Source of the DNA: Escherichia coli
Lineage (GTDB): Bacteria; Pseudomonadota; Gammaproteobacteria; Enterobacterales; Enterobacteriaceae
DNA: 64,000 bases
NCBI RefSeq assembly: GCF_024700885.2
Contig: NZ_CP117016.1
Reading direction: 5' to 3' (one strand)
Under the pieces are notes generated by a model that was given only the letters and a program-made list of their open reading frames with translations, was not told the DNA's origin and made no database searches. Below, one piece after another: positions 4,132 to 55,894 of this stretch (within the stretch, counting starts at the first letter, position 1; every line of letters starts with the position of its first letter). A program made the position numbers and the translations under genes.

Positions 4132-4162
4132 GCCGGATGCGGCGTGAATGCCTTATCCGGCC
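4132..4162. repeat. REP (repetitive extragenic palindrome) element
   Basis: gccggatgcggcgtgaatgccttatccggcc, the typical REP consensus, downstream of alr. Confidence 0.6.
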
Positions 4163-4357
4163 AATAAAATCCTACCAATTCAATAAGTTGATGTTCTTTC
4201 ATGTTCTTATAAAGGTCGTGCCTCTGGCGAATGTACGTTTGTCATGAGTCTCACTCTGTTGCTAATTACCGTTCGCTCCTGAACATCCACTCGATCTTCG
4301 CCTTCTTCCGGTTTATTGTGTCTTAACCACCTGCCCGTAAACCTGGAGAACCATCGC

Positions 4358-41357: not shown

Positions 41358-43343
41358 TTAATTTGGGGTTACGATATTCACCCACAAATCGAAATTATCC
41401 AGACAGGCGATAATTTCTTCCAGTTTCGCGCCATTGCCAATAATTTTGGCTTTCTTCGCTTTTACCAGATCCGCCATTTTGGCTTGTCCGGTCAGCACGG
41501 CATGCAGATCTTCACGGCTGATGTAGAAAGAGGCGTCGGCTTGCGGTTGCAGCGTTTTACGGTAGTTAAGCACGCTATCGTTCAGCGTCAGGTTGAGGTT
41601 ATCGCCGTTGCTCATATTGAAGTTCAGGCTGATATTTTTACCTGCGGCTTTCGCACTATCGAGGCGAACGGACATAAAGTCGAATAGCATTTCGACCGAC
41701 ATTCCGCGAATGGTGTCCGGGGAACCGGTGGTGCCGTGGCTGAATTTATGCACCCCTTCGCGCAGCTCTTTCGCGCCGGTCAGGTAGAAACCGCGCCAGG
41801 TGGCGGACTCGGCCTGATAGCCCAGCTGTTCAAAGTTATCCGCTTGCAGATTCTTCGCGACCTGGTCACCTGGGTTGGCGGCAATCACCTGTTTCAGCAG
41901 TTCTGCCGACCAGCGGTAATCACCTTGCTTGTTCGCTTCTTGCGCCAGGTTAATAACGCGGGCAGAACCGCCCAGAGCCTGCACGTAACGTTTACCCATC
42001 TCCACCTGACCATACGGATGCAGGTTAGCCGGGTTACCGTCGTAATAGCCAAGATAGAAGTTATACACCGCGCGGGCGTTGTGGCTGACAGAACCGTAAT
42101 AGCCGCGGCTGGCCCAGTTATTGGCAAGTGCAGGCGGCAGCTTAATCATGTCGCCGATTTCATTCATGGTGTAGCCCTGGTTCGCCAGGTGCAGGGTCTG
42201 GTCGTGAATGTACTTGATGGTATCGCGATATTTACCAATATAATCATTGATATGCTTATTGCCCCAGACCGGCCAGGTGTGCGGCATAAACAGTACTTCC
42301 GCGTCGTTACCCCACATATCCAGCGTTTCGTTCAGGTACTCGGTCCACTTGCTGGTGTCGCGGGTTTTCGCGCCGCGCAGAGTGTAGAAGTTGTGCAGGG
42401 TATGCGTGGCGTTCTCGGCGGTACACAGGGCTTTCAGGGCCGGAATATAGAAGTGCATTTCGGCTGGTGCTTCGCTACCTGGGGTCATCAGGAAGTCAAA
42501 CTCCAGGCCGTCGATAATCATCTTCTCGCCAGTTCTGACAATAGTTTTAGTCGGTGCAATAATGCTCGGGTCGCCGGTTGCCAGCGTCACGCCAAGGCCA
42601 TTACCCACGTTGCCTTGCGCGTTGTGCGGCAGTAACAGACCGTAAGAGTAGAGCGCACGGCGGCTCATGATGTTACCCGCCAGCACGTTTTCGCTGATGG
42701 CTTCGTCCATAAAGCCTGCCGGAGCGATCACCTGCACTTTGCCGGATTTAACATCCGTTTCAGAGATAATGCCTTTCACACCGCCATAATGGTCGGCGTG
42801 GCTGTGGGTGTAAATAACAGCAACAATCGGTTTTTGCGGACGATGCTGGAAGTAAAGGTCAAGTGCGGCTTTTGCGGCAGGCGGCGTCACCAGTGGGTCG
42901 ATAACAATAATGCCTTTCTCGCCTTCTACAAATGTAACGTTAGAGATATCCTGGCCGCGCACCTGATACATTTTATCGGTGACTTTGAACAGGCCAGAAA
43001 TGCCGTTGATCTGCGACTGACGCCACAGGCTGGGGTTTACGGTTTCCGGCGCAGCGGCATTAATATCAAATTTGTAATCATTCGCGCGGTAGTAAACTTT
43101 GCCGTTAGCATCACGCAGAATACCTTCATCCAGCAGCGGGGCGATAAATCCACGCTGGGCATCGTCAAAATCTTGACGATCGCTAAACGGTAATGATTTG
43201 GCGTAATTCTGATTAATCTGTTGGGTATATTGAGTGGCGGCTTTCGCTTCATCTGTTGCGTAAGCGGTATTTACCATCATGCCGCTGGCGGCAGTTAACG
43301 CAATAACAATCCTGCTCAAACGGAATAACCGAGAGTTATTCAT
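41358..43343 (-). CDS. yjcS: Alkyl/aryl sulfatase (metallo-beta-lactamase fold, periplasmic)
   Basis: ORF track 41358..43355; trimmed to [21 protein letters not shown] giving 661 aa; HxHxDH motif ([10 protein letters not shown]). Confidence 0.9.
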
Positions 43344-43595
43344 ATAAATCTCCATTTATCATTTGTGTCGTAAATATGTAATCCATGCAAAATACGTCAT
43401 TTAAAGCTGGCGTTATCATAATTGGGAAATTGCGACTTTAATAAGTGGAAGTGTGAGCGGAACGAGCCATTTTATTAGGCATTTGTGCTGAAGAGGGAAA
43501 AGCACGCGAATTTATTATCTCCGTAAATAATATGAGGTGTTTTATATATTTATTATATATATTGTACTTCGGCAAATACTGAGCACAATTTATCA

Positions 43596-43913
43596 ATGCA
43601 ACCGATGTTTCTTTTTAAAAAACGTACCGGAGCAATGGGCGGTCATGTCGCTGGCACCGCAGGATTCTGCGTTGCTGTGCCAGCCTTTTATTCATGGTCA
43701 ATGAGTGAGGGGATTGATAAAGAAACCAGGTCGTCAGAGCGCACTGATTATCCGCATTACGCCAGTGAAGTTGCACTGGCTTTTGGTTCACGAGTGGTTG
43801 GCCTCGAACTGGCAAAAATGATTGTGGATGCGTGGCTGGGCGCGCAGTACGAAGGCGGTCGTCATCAACAACGCGTTGAGGCGATTACGGCAATAGAGCA
43901 GCGGAAAAATTGA
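43596..43913 (+). CDS. Hypothetical 105-aa ORF at the site where the K-12 als/rpiR/rpiB island is absent
   Basis: ATG-initiated ORF with E. coli-like codon usage but no obvious Shine-Dalgarno; not recognised by me. Confidence 0.3.
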   Translation: MQPMFLFKKRTGAMGGHVAGTAGFCVAVPAFYSWSMSEGIDKETRSSERTDYPHYASEVALAFGSRVVGLELAKMIVDAWLGAQYEGGRHQQRVEAITAIEQRKN

Positions 43914-43981: not shown

Positions 43982-44311
43982 ATGAAACGTTTTCCGCTAT
44001 TTCTTTTATTCACCCTGCTCACGCTGTCCACCGTTCCGGCCCAGGCCGATATTATCGACGACACCATTGGCAATATTCAGCAGGCGATTAACGATGCTTA
44101 TAACCCTGACCGTGGGCGAGACTATGAAGATTCGCGCGACGACGGCTGGCAGCGTGAAGTGAACGACGATCGGCGCAGACAATATGACGATCGCCGCCGC
44201 CAGTTTGAAGATCGCCGCAGGCAGCTGGACGATCGCCAGCGCCAGCTGGATCAGGAGCGTCGGCAGCTAGAAGATGAAGAGCGGAGAATGGAAGATGAGT
44301 ATGGGCGGTGA
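43982..44311 (+). CDS. yjdP: Secreted low-complexity Asp/Arg/Gln/Glu-rich protein
   Basis: 109-aa ORF MKRFPLFLLFTLLTLSTVPAQA (signal peptide) followed by DDRRRQ(Y/F/L)(D/E)D repeats; matches YjdP. Confidence 0.8.
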   Translation: MKRFPLFLLFTLLTLSTVPAQADIIDDTIGNIQQAINDAYNPDRGRDYEDSRDDGWQREVNDDRRRQYDDRRRQFEDRRRQLDDRQRQLDQERRQLEDEERRMEDEYGR

Positions 44312-44345
44312 TGTTGAGTTTAGAGCAGGCATCGCCCCTCACCCA

Positions 44346-45104
44346 TCACTCCACCCCAATCTCCATCCCATCAAACCCCGCCTCAAACCCTGACGGCAGT
44401 GTGTTCTCCATCAGCCACGCATCAAACTGATGGCTGATATGTGTCAGAACCACGCGCGGCGAGCGGATAACTTCATTCAGCGCCAGCACGGTGTTTAAAT
44501 CACAGTGATTACGCGGTGCATCCTCGCGCGGTGGGTGGCTGCAATCAATCACCATCACCTGCGGCTGATTATTGCGTAAAAATTTCAGCGTTTTTTCCGG
44601 CAGGCCTGCGGTGTCAGACAGCCACGCCACCCGGCTATGTGCCGTTTCCAGTAGATAGCCGAAAGTGAGTTTCGAATGGTTGAGCGGCAGCGGCGTGACC
44701 TGTAATCCCTGCAAATCAAACATCACAAATGGCTCCACCGTGTGGCTGAAATCAAGCAGGCCCGGATGTTTAAACAGATCGTCGCAGCCCTGTTCATCCG
44801 GCGGGCCGTAGACCGGGATCGAATCGCCCACGCCCCAGCGCAGCGGAAACAGCCCCTGCACGTGATCCATATGGTAGTGCGTCAGCAAAAACTGCTGGAA
44901 CGATCCGGGCGACCAGCGATCGGCGAGATCGTGCAGCCCGGCGTCGATCAGGGTGATCGCGTCGTTAAACTTCACGACGCCGCTGCATGGCTGGCGGCGA
45001 TACTGCGGTGAGCGCCGCGCTCTGACGCAGGCCACGCACTCACAGCCCCATGCGGGAACGCCCTGTGCGCCGCCAGTGCCGGTGAGCGTGAGGGTCAGGC
45101 TCAT
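44346..45104 (-). CDS. phnP: Phosphoribosyl 1,2-cyclic phosphate phosphodiesterase
   Basis: 252-aa ORF with metallo-beta-lactamase HxHxDH motif ([10 protein letters not shown]). Confidence 0.93.
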
Positions 45105-45105
45105 G

Positions 45106-45540
45106 TTACAGCGCCTTGGTGAAGCGGAAATGGCTCTGCTCGTAGCCTTCGCGCAGATAGAAACGGTGCGCGTCGTGGCGCTTCACGTTGGTGGAAAGCT
45201 CGGTCATTTCGGCCCCGGCCTGGCGGGCTTCTTCTTCTGCCCATGCCAGTAATTTACTGCCGATGTTCAGACCGCGCGCCTGCGGCATCACCACCAGTTC
45301 CTGAATTTCGCCGATCCAGTTGACATGATGCAGATGAAACTGCAAATGCAGGCCGATCATGCCGACAACTTCGCTATCCAGCAACGCCAGATGGTAGCGC
45401 ATGTTCGGATCGCGCAGATTGGCGTTAAACCCCACGCGAAACGCATGGTGGTCAAACTCCGCCTGTTTTAGCTCACAAATCAGCGCGTAAACTGCGTCGG
45501 TGTCGTACTGCGTAGCCGGGCGAAGCTCACAAGCAGGCAT
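45106..45540 (-). CDS. phnO: Aminoalkylphosphonate N-acetyltransferase (GNAT)
   Basis: 144-aa ORF; position and length match PhnO. Confidence 0.92.
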
Positions 45541-46084
45541 GGTGTTTCTCCTTCTGATGAATCAGCGTCAGCAGCTTGTCGACCGACTGGCGCAGGCTGC
45601 CGTCATTATTGAGCGTAAGACAATCCTGAGGAGTATAGCGGGCAGCGCGTGCCAGTCGGGCGTTAATTTCACTGGCATTTTCACGACCACGGTTTTCCAG
45701 GCGCTGGCGCAGGATCTCCGGCGAAACCTGTAAACAAACGGGCAGCAGCGCCGATTGATAGCGCGCCCGCGCCTGCGGCAGATGGGCGCGTGAGCCGTTG
45801 ACCACCACGTCAAATCCAGCGTGCAGCCAGAGGTCAATCTCGACGCCGATGCCATAATACAGGCCGTTGGCGTGCCAGCTTAAGGCCAGAAGGTTCTGCC
45901 CCGCGCGGGTAAAAAACTCCTGCTCGCTCAGGGCGATATGGTTTTCACTTCCGGCGCTGGCGTCGCGCGTGATGTAGCGATGCGCTACCAGTAGCTGAGT
46001 TTGTTCCCGCTGGCGGAGTTCCGTCAACAGACTGTCTTTTCCGGAGCCAGAGGCCCCCATTAACCAAATCAGTTTTCCCGTCAT
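45527..46084 (-). CDS. phnN: Ribose 1,5-bisphosphate phosphokinase
   Basis: 185-aa ORF with P-loop GASGSGKDS. Confidence 0.92.
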
Positions 46085-47220
46085 CAGAACACCCTTTTAC
46101 CCTGACGCCAGACGTGGTCGATATGAATGTGGTTGCCCTTGCGATGCGCCAGCACCAGGTCGGCGCGTTTGCCCTCGCCAATCACCCCGCGATCCTGAAG
46201 ATTAAGCGCCTGCGCCGGATTTTTAGTCACCAGCTTCACCGCCTGCGGCAGCGTAAAGCGGTTGCTCTCGTCATCGGCGACGCGAAATGCCGCATCGAGC
46301 AGGCTGGCGGGGTAGTAGTCGGAAGAAAGGATATCCAGCAGGCCAAGCTGCGCCAGTTCACTGGCCGCCACGTTACCGGAGTGCGAACCGCCGCGCACGA
46401 TATTCGGCGCGCCCATCAGCACGTTCATGCCATGCTTGCGCGAGGCTTGTGCCGCTTCGAACGTGGTGGGAAATTCGGCGATCACGCTGCCAAGCTGGTG
46501 GGATTCGGCAACGTGGGCGTGCGTGGCGTCATCGTGGCTGGCGAGGGCAATGTGTCGCGCGCGGCACATTGCGGCGATGGTTTCGCGATTAGGTTGTGAC
46601 CAGCGTGCGGCGAGCGCCAATTGCTCTTCTTCGTACTGCTGCATCTGCGCATCGGTGAGGGAATATTTGCCCTGATAATATTCGCGATACTTCTCGCGAT
46701 TGGCGAACTGGCGCTGGCCCGGCGAGTGGTCCATCAGCGATACCAGCGTCACCGGTTCGCGCTGCACCAGTTTTTCAAACAGCGGCAACGTGGTGTGGTG
46801 CGGCAGTTCGCAGCGCAGATGCAGACGGTGCTCGGCGCGGTTGACGCCGCGTTTCTGCGTCTCTTCGATGGCGTTGATCATCTTCTCAAGATTCTCCAGC
46901 CGATCGCCGCCGTCGCGCACATCACCAATCGCCACGGCATCCAGTACGGTGGTGATGCCGCTCGCCACCATCAGCGCGTCGTGGCTGCTCATCGCCGAGT
47001 GGGCAGGCCAGTCAACTTTCGGGCGCGGGGTGAAGAATTTATCCAGATTATCGGTATGCAGCTCAATCAGCCCCGGTAGCAGCCAGCCGCCTTCGCCGTC
47101 CATCGCCTCCGGCAGGCGGCTCTGGCTTTCGGCAAAGGCGCGAATTTCGCCATCCTGCACCTCCAGTGAACCGTGTACCACTTCGTTTTCCAGCACCAGT
47201 TTGACGTTATTGATAATCAT
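46084..47220 (-). CDS. phnM: C-P lyase pathway triphosphate diphosphohydrolase (amidohydrolase fold)
   Basis: 378-aa ORF; position and length match PhnM. Confidence 0.92.
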
Positions 47221-47897
47221 GAAGAGGCTCCCATCGGGTGCAGGCGGTCGGCGACGTCATTGCGTACGGCTTCGTCATGGAAGATACCGACGATGGCTGC
47301 GCCACGGGCTTTGGCTTCGCGAATGAGTTCCACCACCGCGGCGCTGTTTTTAGCGTCCAGCGAGGCGGTGGGTTCATCCAGCAGCAGAATGGGGTAGTCG
47401 ACGATAAAGCCACGGGCGATGTTGACGCGCTGCTGTTCGCCGCCGGAGAAGGTCGATGGTGCCAGGTGCCACAGGCGTTCAGGCACGTTCAGGCGCGTCA
47501 GTAATCGGGCGGCTTTAGCGGCGCAGGCTTCACGCGGTACGCCGGTATCGAGCAGAGGCTGCATCACCACTTCCAGTGCCGAAATACGCGGGATGACGCG
47601 CAGAAACTGGCTCACCCAGCCGATGGTGGTTTTGCGGATCTCCACCACTTTGCGGGCTGGCGCGGTGACCAGGTCTACCCATTCCTCACCGTGTTTGATC
47701 TGGATTTGCCCTTCGTCGGGCAGATAGTTGGCGTACAGCGAGCGCAGCAGGGTTGATTTTCCGCTGCCGGAGTGGCCGTGAAGCACCACGCATTCGCCTG
47801 CGTTGACGGTGAGCGAGGCACGTTGTAAGACGTGCAGGCGCACGCCGTTTTGCTGGTGCAGGATGAAGGTTTTACTGACGTTTTGTACGTTAATCAT
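47217..47897 (-). CDS. phnL: C-P lyase ATP-binding subunit PhnL
   Basis: ORF track 47217..48011; trimmed to [15 protein letters not shown] giving 226 aa; Walker [10 protein letters not shown]. Confidence 0.9.
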
Positions 47898-47917
47898 TTT
47901 TCGCCTCGTGGTTCGGG

Positions 47918-48003
47918 TGTCGGATGCGACGCTGACGCGTCTTATCCGACCTACGGGGAGCGCCTTTGTCGGCCGGATAAGGCGTTTACGCCGTATCCGG
48001 CAC
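47918..48003. repeat. Pair of REP elements between phnK and phnL
   Basis: gtcggatgcgacgctgacgcgtcttatccgac and gtcggccggataaggcgtttacgccgtatccggcac, inverted relative to each other. Confidence 0.6.
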
Positions 48004-48007
48004 TGGC

Positions 48008-48766
48008 TCAATTCTGCAAAACCGATGACACCAGCAACTGGGTGTACGGGTGGTGCGGGTCGTCGAGCACGCGGTCGGTTAACCCACTCTCCACCACTTG
48101 CCCCTGTTTCATCACCAGCAAACGGTCCGCCAGCAGGCGGGCGACGCCTAAATCATGGGTGACAATCACCACCGCCAGATTCAGCTCCACCACCAGGCCG
48201 CGCAGCAGGTCGAGCAGGCGCGCCTGCACCGATACATCCAGCCCGCCGGTTGGCTCGTCCATGAACACCAGCTTCGGATGCGTCACCAGGTTGCGGGCAA
48301 TCTGCAAACGTTGCTGCATACCGCCGGAAAAAGTGGTCGGCAGGTCGTCGATCCGGTTGGCGGGAATTTCCACCTCTTCCAGCCACTTCTGCGCGGTGGC
48401 GCGGATGTCGCCGTAATGACGCGCCCCGGTCGCCATCAGCCGCTCGCCGATATTGCCGCCTGCCGACACCTGGCGGCGCAGGCCGTCGAGCGGATGCTGA
48501 TGTACCACGCCCCATTCGGTGCGCAGCAGGCGACGGCGGTCGGCCTCGCTCATCGCATACAACGAACGATTCTCGTAGCGAATCTCCCCCTGCTGCGGCG
48601 TCAGGCGCGCGGAGATTGATTTCAGCAGCGTGGTCTTCCCGGAGCCGGATTCCCCGACGATGCCCAGCACTTCCCCCGGCCATAAATCAAAAGAGACATC
48701 GCTAAAGCCTTTGCCCGGCGCGTAAAGGTGGGTCAGGTTATTGACCGAAAGTAACGGTTGATTCAT
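48008..48766 (-). CDS. phnK: C-P lyase ATP-binding subunit PhnK
   Basis: ORF track 48008..48796; trimmed to [15 protein letters not shown] giving 252 aa; Walker [10 protein letters not shown]. Confidence 0.92.
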
Positions 48767-49608
48767 TGGCTTTTCGCCTCGCTCTGTTGGCGGCAATAAT
48801 CGGTATCGGAGCAGACAAACATGCGGTTTCCGGCGTCATCCAGCACCACTTCGTCGAGATAGCTGTGGGTCGATCCGCAGATGGCGCATGGTTCATCCCA
48901 CTGCTGAACGGTGAACGGGTGATCGTCGAAATCGAGGCTTTCCACGCGGGTAAACGGCGGCACCGCATAGATGCGCTTTTCGCGCCCCGCGCCGAACAGT
49001 TGCAGGGCGGGCATCATGTCCATTTTCGGGTTATCGAATTTCGGGATCGGCGACGGATCCATCACGTAGCGGCCGTTCACCTTCACCGGATAGGCGTAGG
49101 TAGTGGCGATATGACCGAAGCGGGCGATATCTTCATACAGCTTCACCTGCATCACGCCGTACTCCTCCAGCGCGTGCATGGTGCGGGTTTCCGTTTCGCG
49201 CGGCTCGATAAAGCGCAGCGGTTCGGGGATCGGCACCTGGAAAATAATGATCTGATCTTCCGTCAGCGGCGTTTCGGGGATGCGGTGGCGGGTCTGGATA
49301 AGCGTCGCATCGTCCGTGCGCTCGGTGGTGTTCACCCCGGTCACGCGCTTAAAGAAGTTACGGATCGACACTGCGTTGGTGGTGTCGTCTGCACCCTGGT
49401 CAATCACCTTCAGCACGTCGCTTTCGCCAATCACGCTGGCGGTGAGCTGTATGCCGCCGGTTCCCCAACCGTAGGGCATCGGCATCTCGCGCCCGCCAAA
49501 CGGCACCTGATAACCGGGGATCGCCACCGCTTTTAAGATGGCGCGGCGGATCATGCGTTTGGTCTGCTCGTCGAGGTAGGCAAAGTTGTAGCCGCTCAGA
49601 TTAGCCAT
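48763..49608 (-). CDS. phnJ: C-P lyase catalytic subunit (radical SAM-like, Cys cluster)
   Basis: ORF track 48763..49797; trimmed to MANLSGYNFAYLDEQTK giving 281 aa; C-terminal CxxCxxxxxxxxxC-type cysteines. Confidence 0.92.
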   Translation of the reverse strand: MANLSGYNFAYLDEQTKRMIRRAILKAVAIPGYQVPFGGREMPMPYGWGTGGIQLTASVIGESDVLKVIDQGADDTTNAVSIRNFFKRVTGVNTTERTDDATLIQTRHRIPETPLTEDQIIIFQVPIPEPLRFIEPRETETRTMHALEEYGVMQVKLYEDIARFGHIATTYAYPVKVNGRYVMDPSPIPKFDNPKMDMMPALQLFGAGREKRIYAVPPFTRVESLDFDDHPFTVQQWDEPCAICGSTHSYLDEVVLDDAGNRMFVCSDTDYCRQQSEAKSQ

Positions 49609-50665
49609 GGTTCTGCTCCTGTTGCAGACGTTTGAGTAGCTCCAGTTCGGCCTGGAAATCGACGTAGTGGGGGAGTTTGAGGTGCGAGACAAAGCCTGCG
49701 GCTTCGACGTTGTCGGCATGCGCCAGCACGAACTCTTCATCCTGCGCCGGGCCTGTCGCGTGCTCGCCGTACTCCGGAGCCTGCAACGCACGGTCAACCA
49801 GCGCCATTGCCATCGCTTTGCGCTCGCTCATGCCGAACACCAGTCCGTAGCCGCGCGTGAAGTGCGGCGGCTCATCCGGCGGGTCGATAAAACCGTTGAC
49901 CATTTCACATTCGGTCATCAGCAGTTCGCCGACGTTCACCGCAAATCCCAGCTCTTCCGGCACAATCGACACGTCGATATAGCCACTGCGGATTTCGCCT
50001 GCGAACGGATGATTGCGTCCGTAACCACGCTGGGTGGAGTAGGCCAGCGCCAGCAAATAGCCTTCGTCGCCGCGCATTAATTGTTGCAGGCGGGAGGAGC
50101 GTGAGCAGGGGTAAACCGGCGGCGTGCGGGTGATGTCATCCGGCTGTGCGCCGCTATCTTCTTCAAATTTCGCCAGCCCCTGACGCGCCAGCAGGCTGAA
50201 AACGTGCGGCGACGGGGATTGTTCGCTGTCGGCTGTGGTCAGCGTTGGCGCTTCGCCGTTTGCCAGCAGGGTGAAATCGAGCAGGCGATGGGTGTAGTCG
50301 TAGGTTGGGCCAAGCAACTGGCCGCCGGGAATATCTTTATACACCGCTGAAATACGCCGTTCGAGACGCATCCCGGTGGTGTCGAGCGGCTCGCTTACCG
50401 CAAGCTTCGCCAGCGTGGTACGGTAGGCGCGCAGCAGGAAAATTGCTTCGACGTTATCGCCGCTGGCCTGTTTCAGCGCCAGCGCCGCCAGTTCGCGGTC
50501 GGCAATGCCGCCTTCGGTCATCACGCGATCTACTGCAAGATTAAGCTGCTGTTCAATCTGGGCGACGCTCAGTTCAGGCAAATCTGTATCGCCCCGGCGT
50601 CGGCTCTCTTGCAGGGCGTGGGCGGCGTCGATCGCCTTTTCGCCCCCTTTCACGGCAACGTACAT
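49601..50665 (-). CDS. phnI: C-P lyase core complex subunit PhnI
   Basis: ORF track 49601..50785; trimmed to [16 protein letters not shown] giving 354 aa. Confidence 0.92.
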   Translation of the reverse strand: MYVAVKGGEKAIDAAHALQESRRRGDTDLPELSVAQIEQQLNLAVDRVMTEGGIADRELAALALKQASGDNVEAIFLLRAYRTTLAKLAVSEPLDTTGMRLERRISAVYKDIPGGQLLGPTYDYTHRLLDFTLLANGEAPTLTTADSEQSPSPHVFSLLARQGLAKFEEDSGAQPDDITRTPPVYPCSRSSRLQQLMRGDEGYLLALAYSTQRGYGRNHPFAGEIRSGYIDVSIVPEELGFAVNVGELLMTECEMVNGFIDPPDEPPHFTRGYGLVFGMSERKAMAMALVDRALQAPEYGEHATGPAQDEEFVLAHADNVEAAGFVSHLKLPHYVDFQAELELLKRLQQEQNHG

Positions 50666-51249
50666 CAGCACACCTCCACATGAGTGGTTCGCGGGATAGC
50701 CAGCAGGCGCTCGCCGCAGGTCAGGATCAGGTCGATGCCGAGCGGGAACGGGTGCGGGCGCTCGGTGAGTTCGTGCAAAATGCACTCCGGTAGCTGCGGA
50801 GCGATCATTCGTTCTTCGGCAATACCCGCGCCAGTAAGGCGCAGCATGCGCCCGCCGCTCAGGCTGGCGACCTGTAAAATCAGCGTCGCGCCCGCTTCTG
50901 GCGCAACGGCGGTGCCGGTGGAAAGGGCGTTGAGCTGTTCGCTGGAAATCGCCTCATCCGTTACCGCGAAGGTCGCCTGTTCCGGCTGGCTGACCAGCGG
51001 CGCGTTGGTATGAAAACGCAGGCTCTGGCTGACGATATCGTTACTTAATGGCGTAGAAAGCCACACCGGCGTGTCGTTATCGGCCAGCGTCAGCAGCACG
51101 CTGGTGGTGGCGATATTCAGCGGCTGCCAGCCGCGCTTGAGCTGATGCAGGGCGACAATCACGCCCGGCTCGCTCATGGCCTTTAACAGGCGACGAAAAC
51201 TGTGCTGGGCATCCTGCACGGGAAGCATAAAAGCAGTTTCCAGGGTCAT
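50665..51249 (-). CDS. phnH: C-P lyase core complex subunit PhnH
   Basis: 194-aa ORF; position and length match PhnH. Confidence 0.92.
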
Positions 51250-51698
51250 GCGTTATCTCCGCGAACCATCGTAAAGAAGTCGACCCGGCTGGCGTTCACT
51301 TCGGCCTGGCGTGCGGCAATGCGTGCCATACGGTCAGCGTCCAGCGGGGCAATAAGGGTTTCTGATAAGTTTTGAAAATGGCGGGTTTGCTGCATCAGCG
51401 CGTCAATCAGCGCGCAGCGTTCGGCGTGCTGTTTGTCGCGCCCCAGCACCCAGCTGTAGCCGAGCGTGCCGTCAGTCAGGCGTACGGCGGCGCGGGTGAG
51501 CGTGGCGTCGCCAGCAAAAAAGCGTTCGCCGGTGCCACCCATCCGCGCCTGAATCTGCACCAGGCCGGTTTCAGCGGCGCGGATCACTTCATAGTCGGCG
51601 GTGATGTTCAGCGCCTTCAGGCGGGCTGCCAGTTCAGCCGGTTGGCTGTGTGCCAGTACGGACATCCAGTGCTGGCGGGTCGCGGTATCTGCGTGCAT
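51246..51698 (-). CDS. phnG: C-P lyase core complex subunit PhnG
   Basis: 150-aa ORF; position and length match PhnG. Confidence 0.92.
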
Positions 51699-52424
51699 TC
51701 AGTGCTCCATAGTGAATTCAATCATGTCGGCGCGCGTCAGGCTGACGGAGTACTCCGCCGGGCTGCTTTCACCGTCACGGTGGTTAAGGGTGCGCACGCA
51801 CAGCAGCGGCGACATATTCGGGATTTCAAGACGCTGGCACTCTTTGGCCTGGGCGCGGCGGGCGCTGATCCGCGTCTGGCTGCGGCGCAGCGCAATCCCC
51901 GTTTGCTCGCGCAGAAAATCGTGCAGCGAGCCGCTGTCGAAGCGTTGCAGCGTCGGCCAGAGGGTGAGGTCCGCAAAGTAGTGGTCGATTAAACAGAGCG
52001 CGACGCCGTTGACCCGGCGCAGGGTGCGCAGGTGGATAACGTTCTCGCCCTCGGTTATCCCCAGCGCGTCAGCGACGTGACCGGAGGCCGGGCGCAGCAC
52101 AGACAGCAGTTTTTCGCTGGTGGGATGGCTGCCCTGATCCAGCAGGTTCTGGCTAAAACGCGCCTGGGCGTTGAGCGGGTAATCGAACGGGCGCATCAGC
52201 ACCAGTACGCCGATGCCCTGACGGCGCTGTACCCAGCCTTTTTCCACCAGTTGGTCGATGGCACGGCGCAGGGTGTGGCGATTCACCTCAAAGCGCGCCG
52301 CCAGTTGCTGCTCGGCGGGAAGATAGTCGCCGCAGCGGTAGTGTTGACGAAGCTCCTGCTCAAGTTTTGCGGCTATCTCCTGATAGCGTGTTGGGTAGCT
52401 GGTCGGATGTGTAGACAAGTGCAT
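51699..52424 (-). CDS. phnF: GntR-family repressor of the phn operon
   Basis: ORF track 51699..52433; trimmed to MHLSTHPTSYPTRYQEIAAKL giving 241 aa; HTH plus UTRA domain layout. Confidence 0.9.
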   Translation of the reverse strand: MHLSTHPTSYPTRYQEIAAKLEQELRQHYRCGDYLPAEQQLAARFEVNRHTLRRAIDQLVEKGWVQRRQGIGVLVLMRPFDYPLNAQARFSQNLLDQGSHPTSEKLLSVLRPASGHVADALGITEGENVIHLRTLRRVNGVALCLIDHYFADLTLWPTLQRFDSGSLHDFLREQTGIALRRSQTRISARRAQAKECQRLEIPNMSPLLCVRTLNHRDGESSPAEYSVSLTRADMIEFTMEH

Positions 52425-52444
52425 AGATATCAATGCCTCGCTTA

Positions 52445-53224
52445 TCAGATAAAGTGCTTACGCAACCGTTGAGAGAGGAAATCCAGCAGGCTGACCGTGA
52501 CGATAATCAGCACCATCAGGGCGCAGGTTTGCTGGAACTGGAAACCGCGAATCGCTTCCCACAGCGTGACGCCGATCCCGCCCGCGCCGACCATGCCGAC
52601 GACGGTCGCCGAGCGGACGTTGGATTCGAAGCGATAGAGGGAGTAGGAGATCAGCAGCGGCATCACCTGTGGCAGCACGCCGTAGAGGATCTCTTCGAGC
52701 TTGTTGGCACCGGTGGCGCGAATGCCTTCCACCGGGCCAGGTTCAATTGCTTCTACCGCTTCGGAAAGCAGCTTGGAGAGCACGCCGGTGGTGTGAATAA
52801 ATAGCGCCAGCACGCCAGCGAACGGACCGAGACCGACGGCGACCACGAACAGCATGGCGAAGACCATCTCGTTAATGGCGCGGCAGGCGTCCATCAGGCG
52901 GCGAACGGGCTGGTAAACCCACCACGGCACCAGGTTTTCGGCGCTCATCAGGCCGAAGGGGATGGAGAGAACGACTGCCAGCGCGGTGCCCCAGACGGCG
53001 ATTTGCAGCGTGACGGCCATTTCGGTGAGGTAATCCTGCCACTGGCTGAAATCGGGCGGGAAGAAGTCGGCGGCGAACGTCGCCATGTTGCCGCCGTCTT
53101 TAATCAGCGTGAGCGGGGCCATTTCCGCGCCCTGCCACGAGACGACCAGCACGGCGAGAACAACGGCCCAGCTCAGAAGCGAGAACCAGCTGCGTTTGGG
53201 TGGGGCGATGGTGATGGTTTGCAT
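52445..53224 (-). CDS. phnE: Phosphonate ABC transporter permease, apparently intact single ORF
   Basis: ORF track 52445..53287; start at [16 protein letters not shown] giving 259 aa uninterrupted. K-12 MG1655 carries a frameshifted cryptic allele as I recall. Confidence 0.88.
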
Positions 53225-53240
53225 GTTTGGCTCCGGTCTG

Positions 53241-53326
53241 TAGGCCGGATAAGGTGCTTGCACCGCATCCGGCATCAACGTCTGCACATTGTCGGATGCG
53301 ACGCCGTGGCGTCTTATCCGACTTAC
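53241..53326. repeat. Pair of REP elements between phnE and phnD
   Basis: taggccggataaggtgcttgcaccgcatccggca and gtcggatgcgacgccgtggcgtcttatccgac. Confidence 0.6.
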
Positions 53327-53329
53327 GAT

Positions 53330-54346
53330 TTACTGCACCGCTTTACTCACCGAACTCATCGCGCTTAACGCGTTGTTCAGGCGGTCCAGGTCATCCAGTT
53401 GCGCCTGAATGGCGGTGGCTTTTGCCAGCTTGTCCTGCTCATTCAGCCCTTTATTGCCTTTCACGCCCTGCATCTCTTTAAACAGCGCGAGCTGGCGAAT
53501 CGGTACCAGTTGCAGGTCGCTGGAGGCGCGGAACGGGGCCCAGCCCAGGCGTTCCAGCACCGCTTTCTCTTCCGGCGTTTTGCCGTAATTCATAAAGAAG
53601 TCGTAGATCTTGTCTTTGGTGGTTTCGGAAAGATTCTTGCGCCAGACGATCGGATCGCCTGGGATCAGCGGCGACTTCCAGATCACCTTCAGTTCTTTCA
53701 GCTTCTCTGGCGCGGAGGTTTTCAGCTTGTCGAGGTTTTCGGTGTTGTTGGTCGCCACATCCACCTGCTTGTTGGCGACGGCCAGCGCGTTGGTTTCATG
53801 CCCGGCGTTGACGGTGCGTTTGAAGTCGCTGGCGGAGATATTGTTTTTGGCGAAGACGTAGTAACCAGGGACGAGGAAGCCGGAGGTAGAGTTAGGATCG
53901 CCATTGCCGAAGGTGAGATCTTTACGCTTCGCCAGCAGATCGTTCAGGTTGTTGATCGGACTATCTTTGTTGACGATCAACACGCTCCAGTAACCCGGCG
54001 ATCCATCCGCCGCGACCGTCTGGGCGAAGACCTGACCGTTGGCGCGATCCACCGCTTCCATCGCAGACAGATTGCCGTACCAGGCGATATCCACTTTATT
54101 GAAGCGCATCCCCTGGATAATGCCCGCGTAGTCCGGGGCAAAGAAGGCGTTGACCTTCACGCCCAGCTTCTTCTCCATATCCTGCAAGAACGGCGTCCAT
54201 TGCGGTTTCAGGTTTTGCTGTGATTCCGTTGAAATAATGCCGAAATTCAGCGCCTTTTCCTGCTCTTCGGCGTGCGCCGGGCTTAACAGGGTGCTGAGGC
54301 TGAACATGCTGGTGAAGGCCAGCGAGGCAATTATCTTAGCGTTCAT
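53330..54346 (-). CDS. phnD: Phosphonate ABC transporter periplasmic binding protein
   Basis: 338-aa ORF with signal peptide MNAKIIASLAFTSMFSLSTLLSPAHA. Confidence 0.93.
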   Translation of the reverse strand: MNAKIIASLAFTSMFSLSTLLSPAHAEEQEKALNFGIISTESQQNLKPQWTPFLQDMEKKLGVKVNAFFAPDYAGIIQGMRFNKVDIAWYGNLSAMEAVDRANGQVFAQTVAADGSPGYWSVLIVNKDSPINNLNDLLAKRKDLTFGNGDPNSTSGFLVPGYYVFAKNNISASDFKRTVNAGHETNALAVANKQVDVATNNTENLDKLKTSAPEKLKELKVIWKSPLIPGDPIVWRKNLSETTKDKIYDFFMNYGKTPEEKAVLERLGWAPFRASSDLQLVPIRQLALFKEMQGVKGNKGLNEQDKLAKATAIQAQLDDLDRLNNALSAMSSVSKAVQ

Positions 54347-54370
54347 TCGTTTTCCTCAATGATGGGGATG

Positions 54371-55159
54371 TCAGGCAGCTTTCGCGTTTTCTTCGACGCG
54401 GTTGATGCTGCGGTAGAGATGGTCAAAACGTTCGTTATCAAACTGTTGGCTGCTGCCGTCGTAGAAGACGTGCCCCTGGCGCAGGGCGACGATGCGTTCG
54501 CAGTAGCGCAGGGCGTAATCCACCTGATGCAGCGTGACGACCACGGTAATGCCGTCGTTCTGGTTAATGTCGCGCAGGGTGTCCATCACGATGCGCGCTG
54601 ATTCCGGGTCCAGCGAGGCGATGGGTTCATCGGCCAGAATCACCTTCGCCTGCTGCATCAGCGCACGGGCAATCGCTACACGCTGCTGCTGGCCGCCGGA
54701 GAGGGTGGAAACGCGCTGATGGGCAAAGTGCACCATGCCAACGCGGGTCAGCGCCTGTAACGCGCGCTGTTTCTGCTCGCGGGTGAAGTAGCTAAAACAG
54801 GTGCGCCAGAACGGCGTGCTGCCGAGCGCGCCAATCAGCACGTTCTCCAGTACGCTCAGGCGATTCACCAGGTTGAATTGTTGGAAGATGTAGCCGGTGT
54901 TGGCGCGGCTTTTGCGGATATCGCGGGCCAGGCGGCCTTCGCGCTGGACTGTGCGACCCAGCAGCTCGATATGGCTACCGGCAGATTTATCGCCGGTAAT
55001 CAAACCGCTTAAGTGACGTAAAAGGGTGGATTTGCCGGAACCCGACGGCCCAAGCAGAGCCACCATTTCACCGTGATGAATGTTCAGATCAACCGCGTGC
55101 AGCGCCTGATGCTGATTGAAGGTTTTGGCGAGCTTCTCGACACGGATAATCGTTTGCAT
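54371..55159 (-). CDS. phnC: Phosphonate ABC transporter ATPase
   Basis: 262-aa ORF with Walker [10 protein letters not shown] and signature LSGGQQQR. Confidence 0.95.
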
Positions 55160-55200: not shown

Positions 55201-55236
55201 ATTGTGACGATTTTGTTAACTAAAAGTGACTAACGG
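55201..55236 (-). promoter_or_regulatory. Candidate Pho box (PhoB site) of the phnC promoter
   Basis: Minus-strand reading gttagtcacttttagttaacaaaatcgtcacaataat contains three CTGTCAT-like 7-mers at 11-bp phasing, about 45-80 bp upstream of the phnC ATG. Confidence 0.5.
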
Positions 55237-55291
55237 ATGAAGAGTTAACGAGATTTCGATGACAGTGCGGGAGGGCGGCCCTCCCGGCGGG

Positions 55292-55735: not shown

Positions 55736-55801
55736 GATGGTGACCTCAGTTAAGAGAAGCCAGTTAAGTGTAGTTCGAAATTTATACAGATGAGAGGGAA
55801 G

Positions 55802-55878
<77 letters not shown>

Positions 55879-55894
55879 AACGATCACATTACAA

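Follow-up and report, generated by a model that had tools for sequence, protein, structure and literature searches.

The phn operon of Escherichia coli raises the question of why a series of closely packed genes is interrupted, at two of its junctions, by pairs of repetitive extragenic palindromic (REP) elements, and of what these repeats do there. The stretch of DNA considered here, called the window, comprises 64,000 nucleotides of E. coli contig NZ_CP117016.1, and in it the genes phnCDEFGHIJKLMNOP occupy positions 44346-55159 of the minus strand, bounded exactly by the stop of phnP and the start of phnC, in the canonical order. The operon was already known, as were its compact junctions and REP elements, this locus being among the best studied of E. 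coli. An original prediction, made from the sequence alone, had claimed that translational coupling along the operon is extreme and consistent with stoichiometric production of the carbon-phosphorus (C-P) lyase complex, and that the REP pairs at phnK/phnL and phnD/phnE may act as mRNA stabilisers or attenuators. The answer that we favour, and hold to be probable although far from certain, is that this is a canonical phn operon with ordinary gene overlaps, in which a conserved hairpin position, located in the spacer after phnD, would stabilise phnCD and attenuate what follows, and the spacer after phnK would have received a near-neutral insertion.

REP pairs in the phnD/phnE and phnK/phnL spacers

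The two REP pairs were found on the minus strand at 47918-48002 (phnK/phnL) and 53239-53327 (phnD/phnE), practically where the original prediction had placed them. On the mRNA, the phnD TAA (53332-53330) is followed, after 3–7 nt, by a Z2-type REP in reverse orientation (53290-53327), a 15-nt linker, a Y-type REP in forward orientation (53239-53274) and agaccGGAGccaaacATG; the sequence cGGAGccaaacATG, which comes after the Y REP, contains the ribosome-binding site and the start (53224) of phnE. In the other spacer, the phnK TGA (48010-48008) is followed, after 6–7 nt, by a forward Y-type REP (47968-48002, with three mismatches to the Y consensus), a 12-nt linker (47956-47967), a reverse Z2-type REP (47918-47955) and cccgaaccacGAGGcgaaaaATG, with the conserved phnL ribosome-binding region gaggcgaaaaATG (47907-47895) coming after the Z2 element. 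So, the arrangement of the pairs differs, being tail-to-tail at phnK/phnL and head-to-head at phnD/phnE. Both Z2 elements were assigned by consensus pattern, family comparison and fold, and the Y element of phnD/phnE by family comparison, fold and its match to the Rfam family naRNA4.

The elements show the features by which REPs and bacterial interspersed mosaic elements (BIMEs) are recognized: they are imperfect palindromes of about 35–40 nt, located between coding sequences, multicopy, and arranged in inverted pairs with short linkers. In shuffled sequence, zero matches to the REP-consensus patterns are expected. Both spacers fold stably, with minimum free energies of -49.5 kcal/mol (z -4.75) at phnK/phnL and -44 kcal/mol (z -4.10) at phnD/phnE, and the stems begin at a distance of 6 nt from the stop codon of phnK and of 7 nt from that of phnD.

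The Rfam model RF02564 (naRNA4), which represents the Z2+Y unit of the REP325 array, matched the phnD/phnE pair (53243-53323) with 64.6 bits on the plus strand, antisense to phn, and with 49.8 bits on the minus strand, its gathering score being 59.5; at phnK/phnL it reached 40.7–40.9 bits, below that score. The phnD/phnE match above the gathering score would be compatible with the phn REP pairs being processed out of the transcript as naRNA4-like, HU-binding RNAs that organize the nucleoid. However, the strand with the passing score is not the one transcribed with phn, the sense strand and the phnK/phnL pair stay below the threshold, and the compaction model proposed for naRNA4 itself was not reproduced (bioRxiv 10.64898/2026.03.23.713779). 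We consider such a nucleoid role extremely improbable and reject it, as the Rfam model simply recognizes the Y/Z2 REP unit.

A third Y/Z2 pair, also on the minus strand, lies at about 55800-55880 in the spacer between yjdM (phnA) and yjdN (phnB), where RF02564 scored 92 bits over 55800-55877. The window contains five REP loci, including two others at 4132-4165 and 22686-22710, and three of the five cluster in the 12-kb yjdM-phn region. REP325/naRNA4 (Harris et al. 2026; Qian et al. 2015 mBio) is built of Y and Z2 units, as are the phn pairs, and lies 1.5 kb upstream of phn between tandem genes of the same strand; in K-12 it comprises 12 units in 577 bp, whereas each phn spacer holds 2 units. 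The yjdM-yjdN spacer measures 159 nt in the window versus 657 nt in K-12, and its single Y/Z2 unit represents a natural near-deletion of the REP325 array.

The two spacers across species and within E. coli

Concerning the spacer after phnD, 43 species from 21 genera were compared. The phnD and phnE genes overlapped in none of the 43, and the spacer measured at least 22 nt, with a median of 68 nt. A fold of -15 kcal/mol or better was found in 41/43 spacers (95%; median -27.5), as compared to 7% of the C/D, 22% of the K/L and 28% of the E/F spacers at the same threshold. The median z-scores against shuffled sequences followed the order: D/E (-2.73), E/F (-1.45), K/L (-0.01), C/D (0.05). Outside Enterobacterales, pairing began 1–12 nt past the phnD stop in all of the 33 D/E spacers. 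The hairpins come from unrelated sources: a REP pair in E. coli, another REP pair in Cedecea, a single REP in Citrobacter, BoxC elements in Leclercia, Kluyvera and Enterobacter, REPINs in Pseudomonas, and plain GC stems, some of them followed by T-runs. Judged from this comparison of spacers, the position after phnD is a conserved hairpin position, supplied by varying sequence families. It may be suggested, tentatively and with less conviction than the favoured explanation as a whole, that the post-phnD spacer is under selection for a strong stop-proximal hairpin across Proteobacteria, and that unrelated mobile palindromes have been recruited to it repeatedly and swapped within E. coli.

Both spacers are polymorphic among E. 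coli strains. At D/E, the REP pair was present in 3,876/5,395 genomes and a BoxC-type allele in 1,339; at K/L, the corresponding numbers were 4,841/5,396 and 546. In the non-REP alleles, the whole spacer from the stop to the ribosome-binding site is swapped for the BoxC-type sequence CCCTCTCCC..GGGAGAGGG..GGGTGAGGG, which matches the type A and type B motifs of BoxC/PIT/TMECO (Holder et al. 2015, PMC4666352). This element, absent from the two spacers of the window, is an alternative occupant in 10–25% of E. coli genomes and occurs also in Leclercia, Kluyvera and Enterobacter. The BoxC-type alleles measure 176 nt at K/L and 125, 67, 64 (inverted in place; L090 152-215) and 60 nt at D/E, and place their stem 14–22 nt from the stop. 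Among the remaining variants there are a K/L allele with three REPs and an AT-rich linker, adjoining a divergent phnL (L004 151-317), and a D/E REP-pair allele whose Z2 hairpin is shortened by a deletion of 16 nt (L091 152-240). At least one stable hairpin was kept in each of the alleles that were read, two of K/L and five of D/E besides those of the window, and no hairpin-free allele was found at either junction among the matches listed or the coverage classes.

This variability could be taken to mean that the repeats are selfish and neutral, with REP and BoxC elements just piling up at non-overlapping junctions and having no effect on phn expression. Family replacement, inversion and internal deletions at both sites, the known status of BoxC sites as hotspots of variation without terminator activity (PMC4666352), the clustering of three REP-family loci within 12 kb, and the long E/F spacers of some Pseudomonas, presumably occupied by repeats, are all in line with such accumulation. 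The comparison of junctions goes in the opposite direction: the genes do not overlap at C/D and E/F either, and still C/D is structured in only 7% of the cases (z 0.05), while D/E is structured in 95% of the species, including those with hairpins that do not derive from repeats. Together with the failure to see a hairpin-free D/E allele in the matches listed or coverage classes of E. coli, this makes neutrality at both sites an unlikely explanation.

The K/L spacer behaves differently. In Leclercia and Citrobacter sp. FP75 it consists of an unstructured 9 nt (stop, gaggcNaac, ATG), and in Cedecea neteri, Hafnia and an Enterobacteriaceae metagenome-assembled genome of a different unstructured 9 nt. 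It extends to 55–160 nt, with REPs of the host's own, in Enterobacter asburiae, Kluyvera, Pluralibacter, C. werkmanii and Cedecea sulfonylureivorans, and to 82–337 nt, with REPINs, in five Pseudomonas/Stutzerimonas loci, two related loci having 11 nt. As E. coli keeps the ancestral gaggcgaaaaATG, the REP pair and its flanks amount to an insertion of about 100 nt. The K/L REP pair therefore looks like an opportunistic insertion, at a junction that, from its varied occupants, would be a recurrent landing pad for repeats. Spacer expansion was also observed elsewhere: the 337-nt K/L spacer (L071) holds several REPIN-like units, E/F spacers of 146–175 nt occur in four loci (L054, L056, L076, L053), and expanded E/F or K/L spacers are found in some Pseudomonas, Salinicola and Stutzerimonas.

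These data bear on another reading, according to which both REP pairs are equal functional punctuation that sets up three tiers of expression in the operon: phnCD, phnE-K and phnL-P. It agrees with the stable folding of both pairs 6–7 nt past a stop codon, with the general REP function indicated by REP325 and by the genome-wide bias of tandem gene pairs described below, and with the lack of an empty K/L allele of E. coli among the matches listed or the coverage classes. But a hairpin is evidently not required at K/L, since many Enterobacterales have an unstructured junction of 9–15 nt and the junction of some Pseudomonas/Stutzerimonas has 11 nt, the median z across species being about 0; moreover, PhnK and PhnL are partners in their action on the core complex, so that a step between them lacks an obvious rationale. 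We therefore regard equal punctuation as possible but doubtful. In the explanation that we favour, the K/L junction would ancestrally have had about 9–10 nt (stop, gaggcNaac, ATG), and the REP pair would have inserted into one of the few tolerant junctions of the operon. The insertion would remove whatever coupling remained between phnK and phnL, and a mild attenuation of phnLMNOP may result from it, its overall effect being probably close to neutral.

Possible effects on phn expression

The effects of the phn REP pairs on RNA or protein levels, as we infer them, would be exerted mainly at phnD/phnE. There, the hairpins would block 3′-to-5′ exonucleases, so that the phnCD segment would be stabilised, and would partly attenuate read-through, possibly helped by Rho. 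The outcome would be an excess of PhnD over PhnE and the downstream enzymes, following the logic of malE-malF and hisJ-hisQ. The intercistronic REPs of these two systems, reportedly described by Newbury et al. in 1987 and Stern et al. in 1988, lie between a binding-protein gene and a permease gene, which is exactly the phnD-REP-phnE layout. The phn operon is nevertheless unlike them in that 11 further genes come after the transporter genes on the transcript, and attenuation would thus also limit the catabolic enzymes.

A closer precedent is REP325, which reduces yjdN about 8–10-fold and stabilises yjdM within the yjdMN operon, by a termination that is partly Rho-dependent (bioRxiv 10.64898/2026.03.23.713779). 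In the same work, 146 REP-containing tandem pairs were biased to upstream expression (median log ratio 0.96, versus -0.09 in controls). In relation to phn itself, expression data were found for K-12 alone: RNA-seq at low phosphate, comparing a phoB deletion with the wild type, gave log2 values of -3.2 for phnC and -2.05 for phnD, a PhoB-dependent signal, with phnE-phnK near zero or untestable, a pattern that would fit a step past phnD. A full-text literature search, with a coverage that did not include the primary phn papers, yielded nothing specific on phn REPs or on phn 3′-end mapping by Term-seq. Altogether, the idea that the REP pairs act as stabilisers or attenuators is plausible at D/E, where the hairpin is conserved in 21 genera and the REP325 precedent applies, and weak at K/L, a site that is empty in close relatives.

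Several observations weigh against a stabilising and attenuating hairpin after phnD. The sample of D/E spacers is phylogenetically clustered, 19/43 coming from Pseudomonas. The RNA-seq step is confounded by the phnE frameshift of K-12, with its polarity, and by low counts. The operon from phnC to phnP is said, from the transposon polarity of Metcalf & Wanner in 1993, to be one transcription unit, and read-through of both REP sites must then be substantial. A scan for intrinsic terminators gave no hairpin plus U-tract at either REP pair, the tails being 'cccgaacc' and 'agaccgga', and for want of a U-tract intrinsic termination at the phn REPs was ruled out. REP325 fragments of 2–4 hairpins were not sensitive to bicyclomycin (bioRxiv 10.64898/2026.03.23.713779), and thus a single phn pair may attenuate only weakly. 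For BoxC elements, which occupy the same spacers in other strains, no terminator or promoter activity was reported (PMC4666352). Finally, a REP within 15 nt of a stop reportedly lowers translation of the upstream gene (the rule of Liang & Deutscher, as given in PMC12306157), an effect that would oppose a higher level of PhnD.

The last point leads to a translational alternative, in which the stop-proximal hairpin stalls the terminating ribosome, with transfer-messenger RNA (tmRNA) action and mRNA cleavage, lowering PhnD and PhnK, and/or blocks reinitiation on the next gene. The distances of 6 and 7 nt between stop and stem fall inside the 15-nt rule as given in PMC12306157, in 33/33 D/E spacers from outside Enterobacterales pairing begins in the range given above, and the phn stems resemble the 'ribosome termination structure' (RTS) of an insulation model (PMC7518266). 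That model, however, was evidenced in a synthetic operon (PMC7518266); the BoxC alleles of E. coli, with stems 14–22 nt from the stop, do not keep the short distance, and less binding protein contradicts the usual need for its excess. In any case, a translational effect could coexist with a stabiliser or attenuator role instead of replacing it. As a substitute for the favoured stabilisation of phnCD with partial attenuation, we find it improbable. The scan for internal promoters was also negative, as there was no sigma-70-like site near K/L or D/E, and promoters after the phn REPs were ruled out.

Gene packing, operon anatomy and implications

The original prediction of a 14-gene phn operon at 44346-55159 was confirmed. 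The 10.8-kb stretch is 100% identical by megablast to E. coli strain 1190 and other RefSeq chromosomes, and when the RefSeq gene table of strain 1190 was mapped to the window all 14 coding sequences were intact, with ATG starts and clean translation. The operon is present in 5,417/5,426 complete E. coli genomes.

The distances between the genes, all on the minus strand, were taken from the RefSeq starts. From phnC (54371-55159) to phnD (53330-54346) there are 24 nt, from phnD to phnE (52445-53224) 105 nt, and from phnE to phnF (51699-52424) 20 nt. Then comes a tightly packed block, F/G to J/K (48763-51701), in which phnF abuts phnG (51246-51698; 0 nt, TGAATG), and overlaps follow of 4 nt (ATGA) with phnH (50665-51249), 1 nt with phnI (49601-50665), 8 nt with phnJ (48763-49608) and 4 nt with phnK (48008-48766). 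After the 110-nt spacer that leads to phnL (47217-47897), a second packed block, L/M to O/P (45102-47220), has overlaps of 4 nt (ATGA) with phnM (46084-47220), 1 nt with phnN (45527-46084) and 14 nt with phnO (45106-45540), and ends with phnP (44346-45104) starting 1 nt after phnO (TAAcATG). Nine of the thirteen junctions, said to overlap by 1–14 nt, are indeed tight, but only seven are true overlaps and two (F/G and O/P) merely abut; the count of nine apparently included both. A Shine-Dalgarno sequence inside the upstream gene was recognizable for most downstream starts, including every one of the F/G to J/K block, and was weak for phnN and phnP.

Whether this packing is extreme depends on the reference. 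Eight of the 13 junctions are within -8 to +6 nt, the range of reinitiation, N/O being just outside at -14, and 24% of all E. coli unidirectional gene pairs are within the same limits (PMC10666635). The binomial probability of such a number is 0.004 at that 24%, 0.10 at an assumed 40% and 0.57 at the 60% of neighbouring operons of the window (nrf, mdtNOP, eptA-basRS, yjcH-actP, crfC-rdcB, yjbQR), which overlap at 9/15 junctions. So, the packing of the phn genes is ordinary, typical of E. coli operons, and the coupling cannot be called extreme.

The overlaps were also compared in 80 phn loci recovered through PhnJ, with rates over 73–75 species for G/H, H/I and I/J. Overlap was found in 66% of the species at G/H, 84% at H/I, 81% at I/J, 54% at J/K, 79% at L/M, 60% at M/N and 91% at N/O (n=11), as compared to 9% at K/L, 2% at C/D and 0% at D/E and E/F. 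On these comparative frequencies the phn overlaps are old, with the deepest conservation in phnG-H-I-J and phnL-M-N. The J/K 'spacers' of 26–77 nt in some species were unstructured, probably derive from the start-codon heuristic and were left uninterpreted.

Experiments showed that termination-reinitiation is possible at overlaps of -4, -1 and -8 nt, which are overrepresented among heteromeric complexes, while reinitiation is lost beyond about 20–38 nt (PMC10666635). The short phn overlaps would then permit this kind of coupling, and with spacers of 105–110 nt, beyond the range of reinitiation, phnE and phnL must start de novo from their retained Shine-Dalgarno sequences. With respect to the coupling studied by Huber et al. 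(2019, 2023), six of the seven phn overlaps are in its -4/-1/-8 classes, including those of the PhnGHIJK subunits, although the overlaps also join the genes of PhnM, PhnN and PhnO, which are not known to belong to a stable C-P lyase complex. As regards stoichiometric production of the complex, the frequent overlap at G/H, H/I and I/J matches the PhnGHIJ core, but overall the layout is only loosely consistent with that purpose. The argument is weakened by the ordinary degree of overlap, by the overlaps L/M, M/N and N/O, and by the 110-nt REP spacer that splits phnK from phnL. Dimers of both PhnK and PhnL bind to the core complex (PMC9947105), and their separation by the insertion argues against a junction layout that tracks stoichiometry.

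The phn operon of E. coli K-12 and B, reportedly treated by Chen in 1990, Makino in 1991 and Metcalf & Wanner in 1993, agrees with the window in gene set, order, junction distances and both REP pairs, the spacers of K-12 differing by 4 nt at K/L and 3 nt at D/E. A difference lies in phnE, which in the window is intact (259 aa) with 2 copies of the 8-bp repeat GCTGGCGT at 52804-52820, whereas K-12 has 3 copies and a frameshift, the classic cryptic phn switch. The K-12 RefSeq annotation starts the phnE1 pseudogene at an in-frame ATG (53273-53275) that lies within the Y REP and precedes by 51 nt the start at 53224 given by the Prokaryotic Genome Annotation Pipeline (PGAP). This candidate was discarded: the ATG lacks a Shine-Dalgarno sequence, the phnE orthologues align only from residue 1–2 of the 53224 start, and the sequence further upstream is not conserved, so that the phnE1 start looks like an annotation artefact.

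Some other features of the region may be mentioned. Upstream of phnC, a scan with the Pho-box consensus allowing up to 3 mismatches gave no site, and degenerate CTGTCAT-like repeats are present at about 55204-55262. A GC-rich hairpin ccgGGAGGGCcGCCCTCCcg at 55262-55290, which directly follows the stop codon of yjdN and precedes phnC by about 100 nt, has no U-tract. At the other end, the BoxC element after phnP, like the REP325 array, is much reduced in the window strain relative to K-12: after the phnP stop (44312-44345) there is only a 10-nt BoxC remnant, gggtgagggg, at about 44333-44342, and the yjdP-phnP spacer measures 34 nt versus 146 nt in K-12, where a full BoxC/TMECO element sits (no. 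22, PMC4666352). The yjdP gene, annotated as 'DDRRRQL repeat protein', contains three tandem 21-nt repeats at 44165-44248. In the interval 41358-43913, the als operon, which in K-12 lies between yjcS and rpiB, is absent, and a truncated rpiB (105 aa versus 149 aa) adjoins yjcS, which suggests a deletion in the lineage of the window.

The role of REPs as stabilisers or attenuators is textbook knowledge, recently reconfirmed at the neighbouring REP325. What is mildly new here is the conserved hairpin position after phnD, with its interchangeable elements, and the dimorphism of REP/BIME and BoxC at both junctions. If the reading of a selected position were true, selfish repeats would have been domesticated as interchangeable parts that tune expression within an operon, and the dimorphism at D/E and K/L would make strains differ heritably in their ratio of transporter to enzymes. 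The phn operon is a convenient natural experiment on the functional interchangeability of REP and BoxC elements, and it could show whether the turnover of repeats makes strains differ in expression while promoters and coding sequences stay the same.

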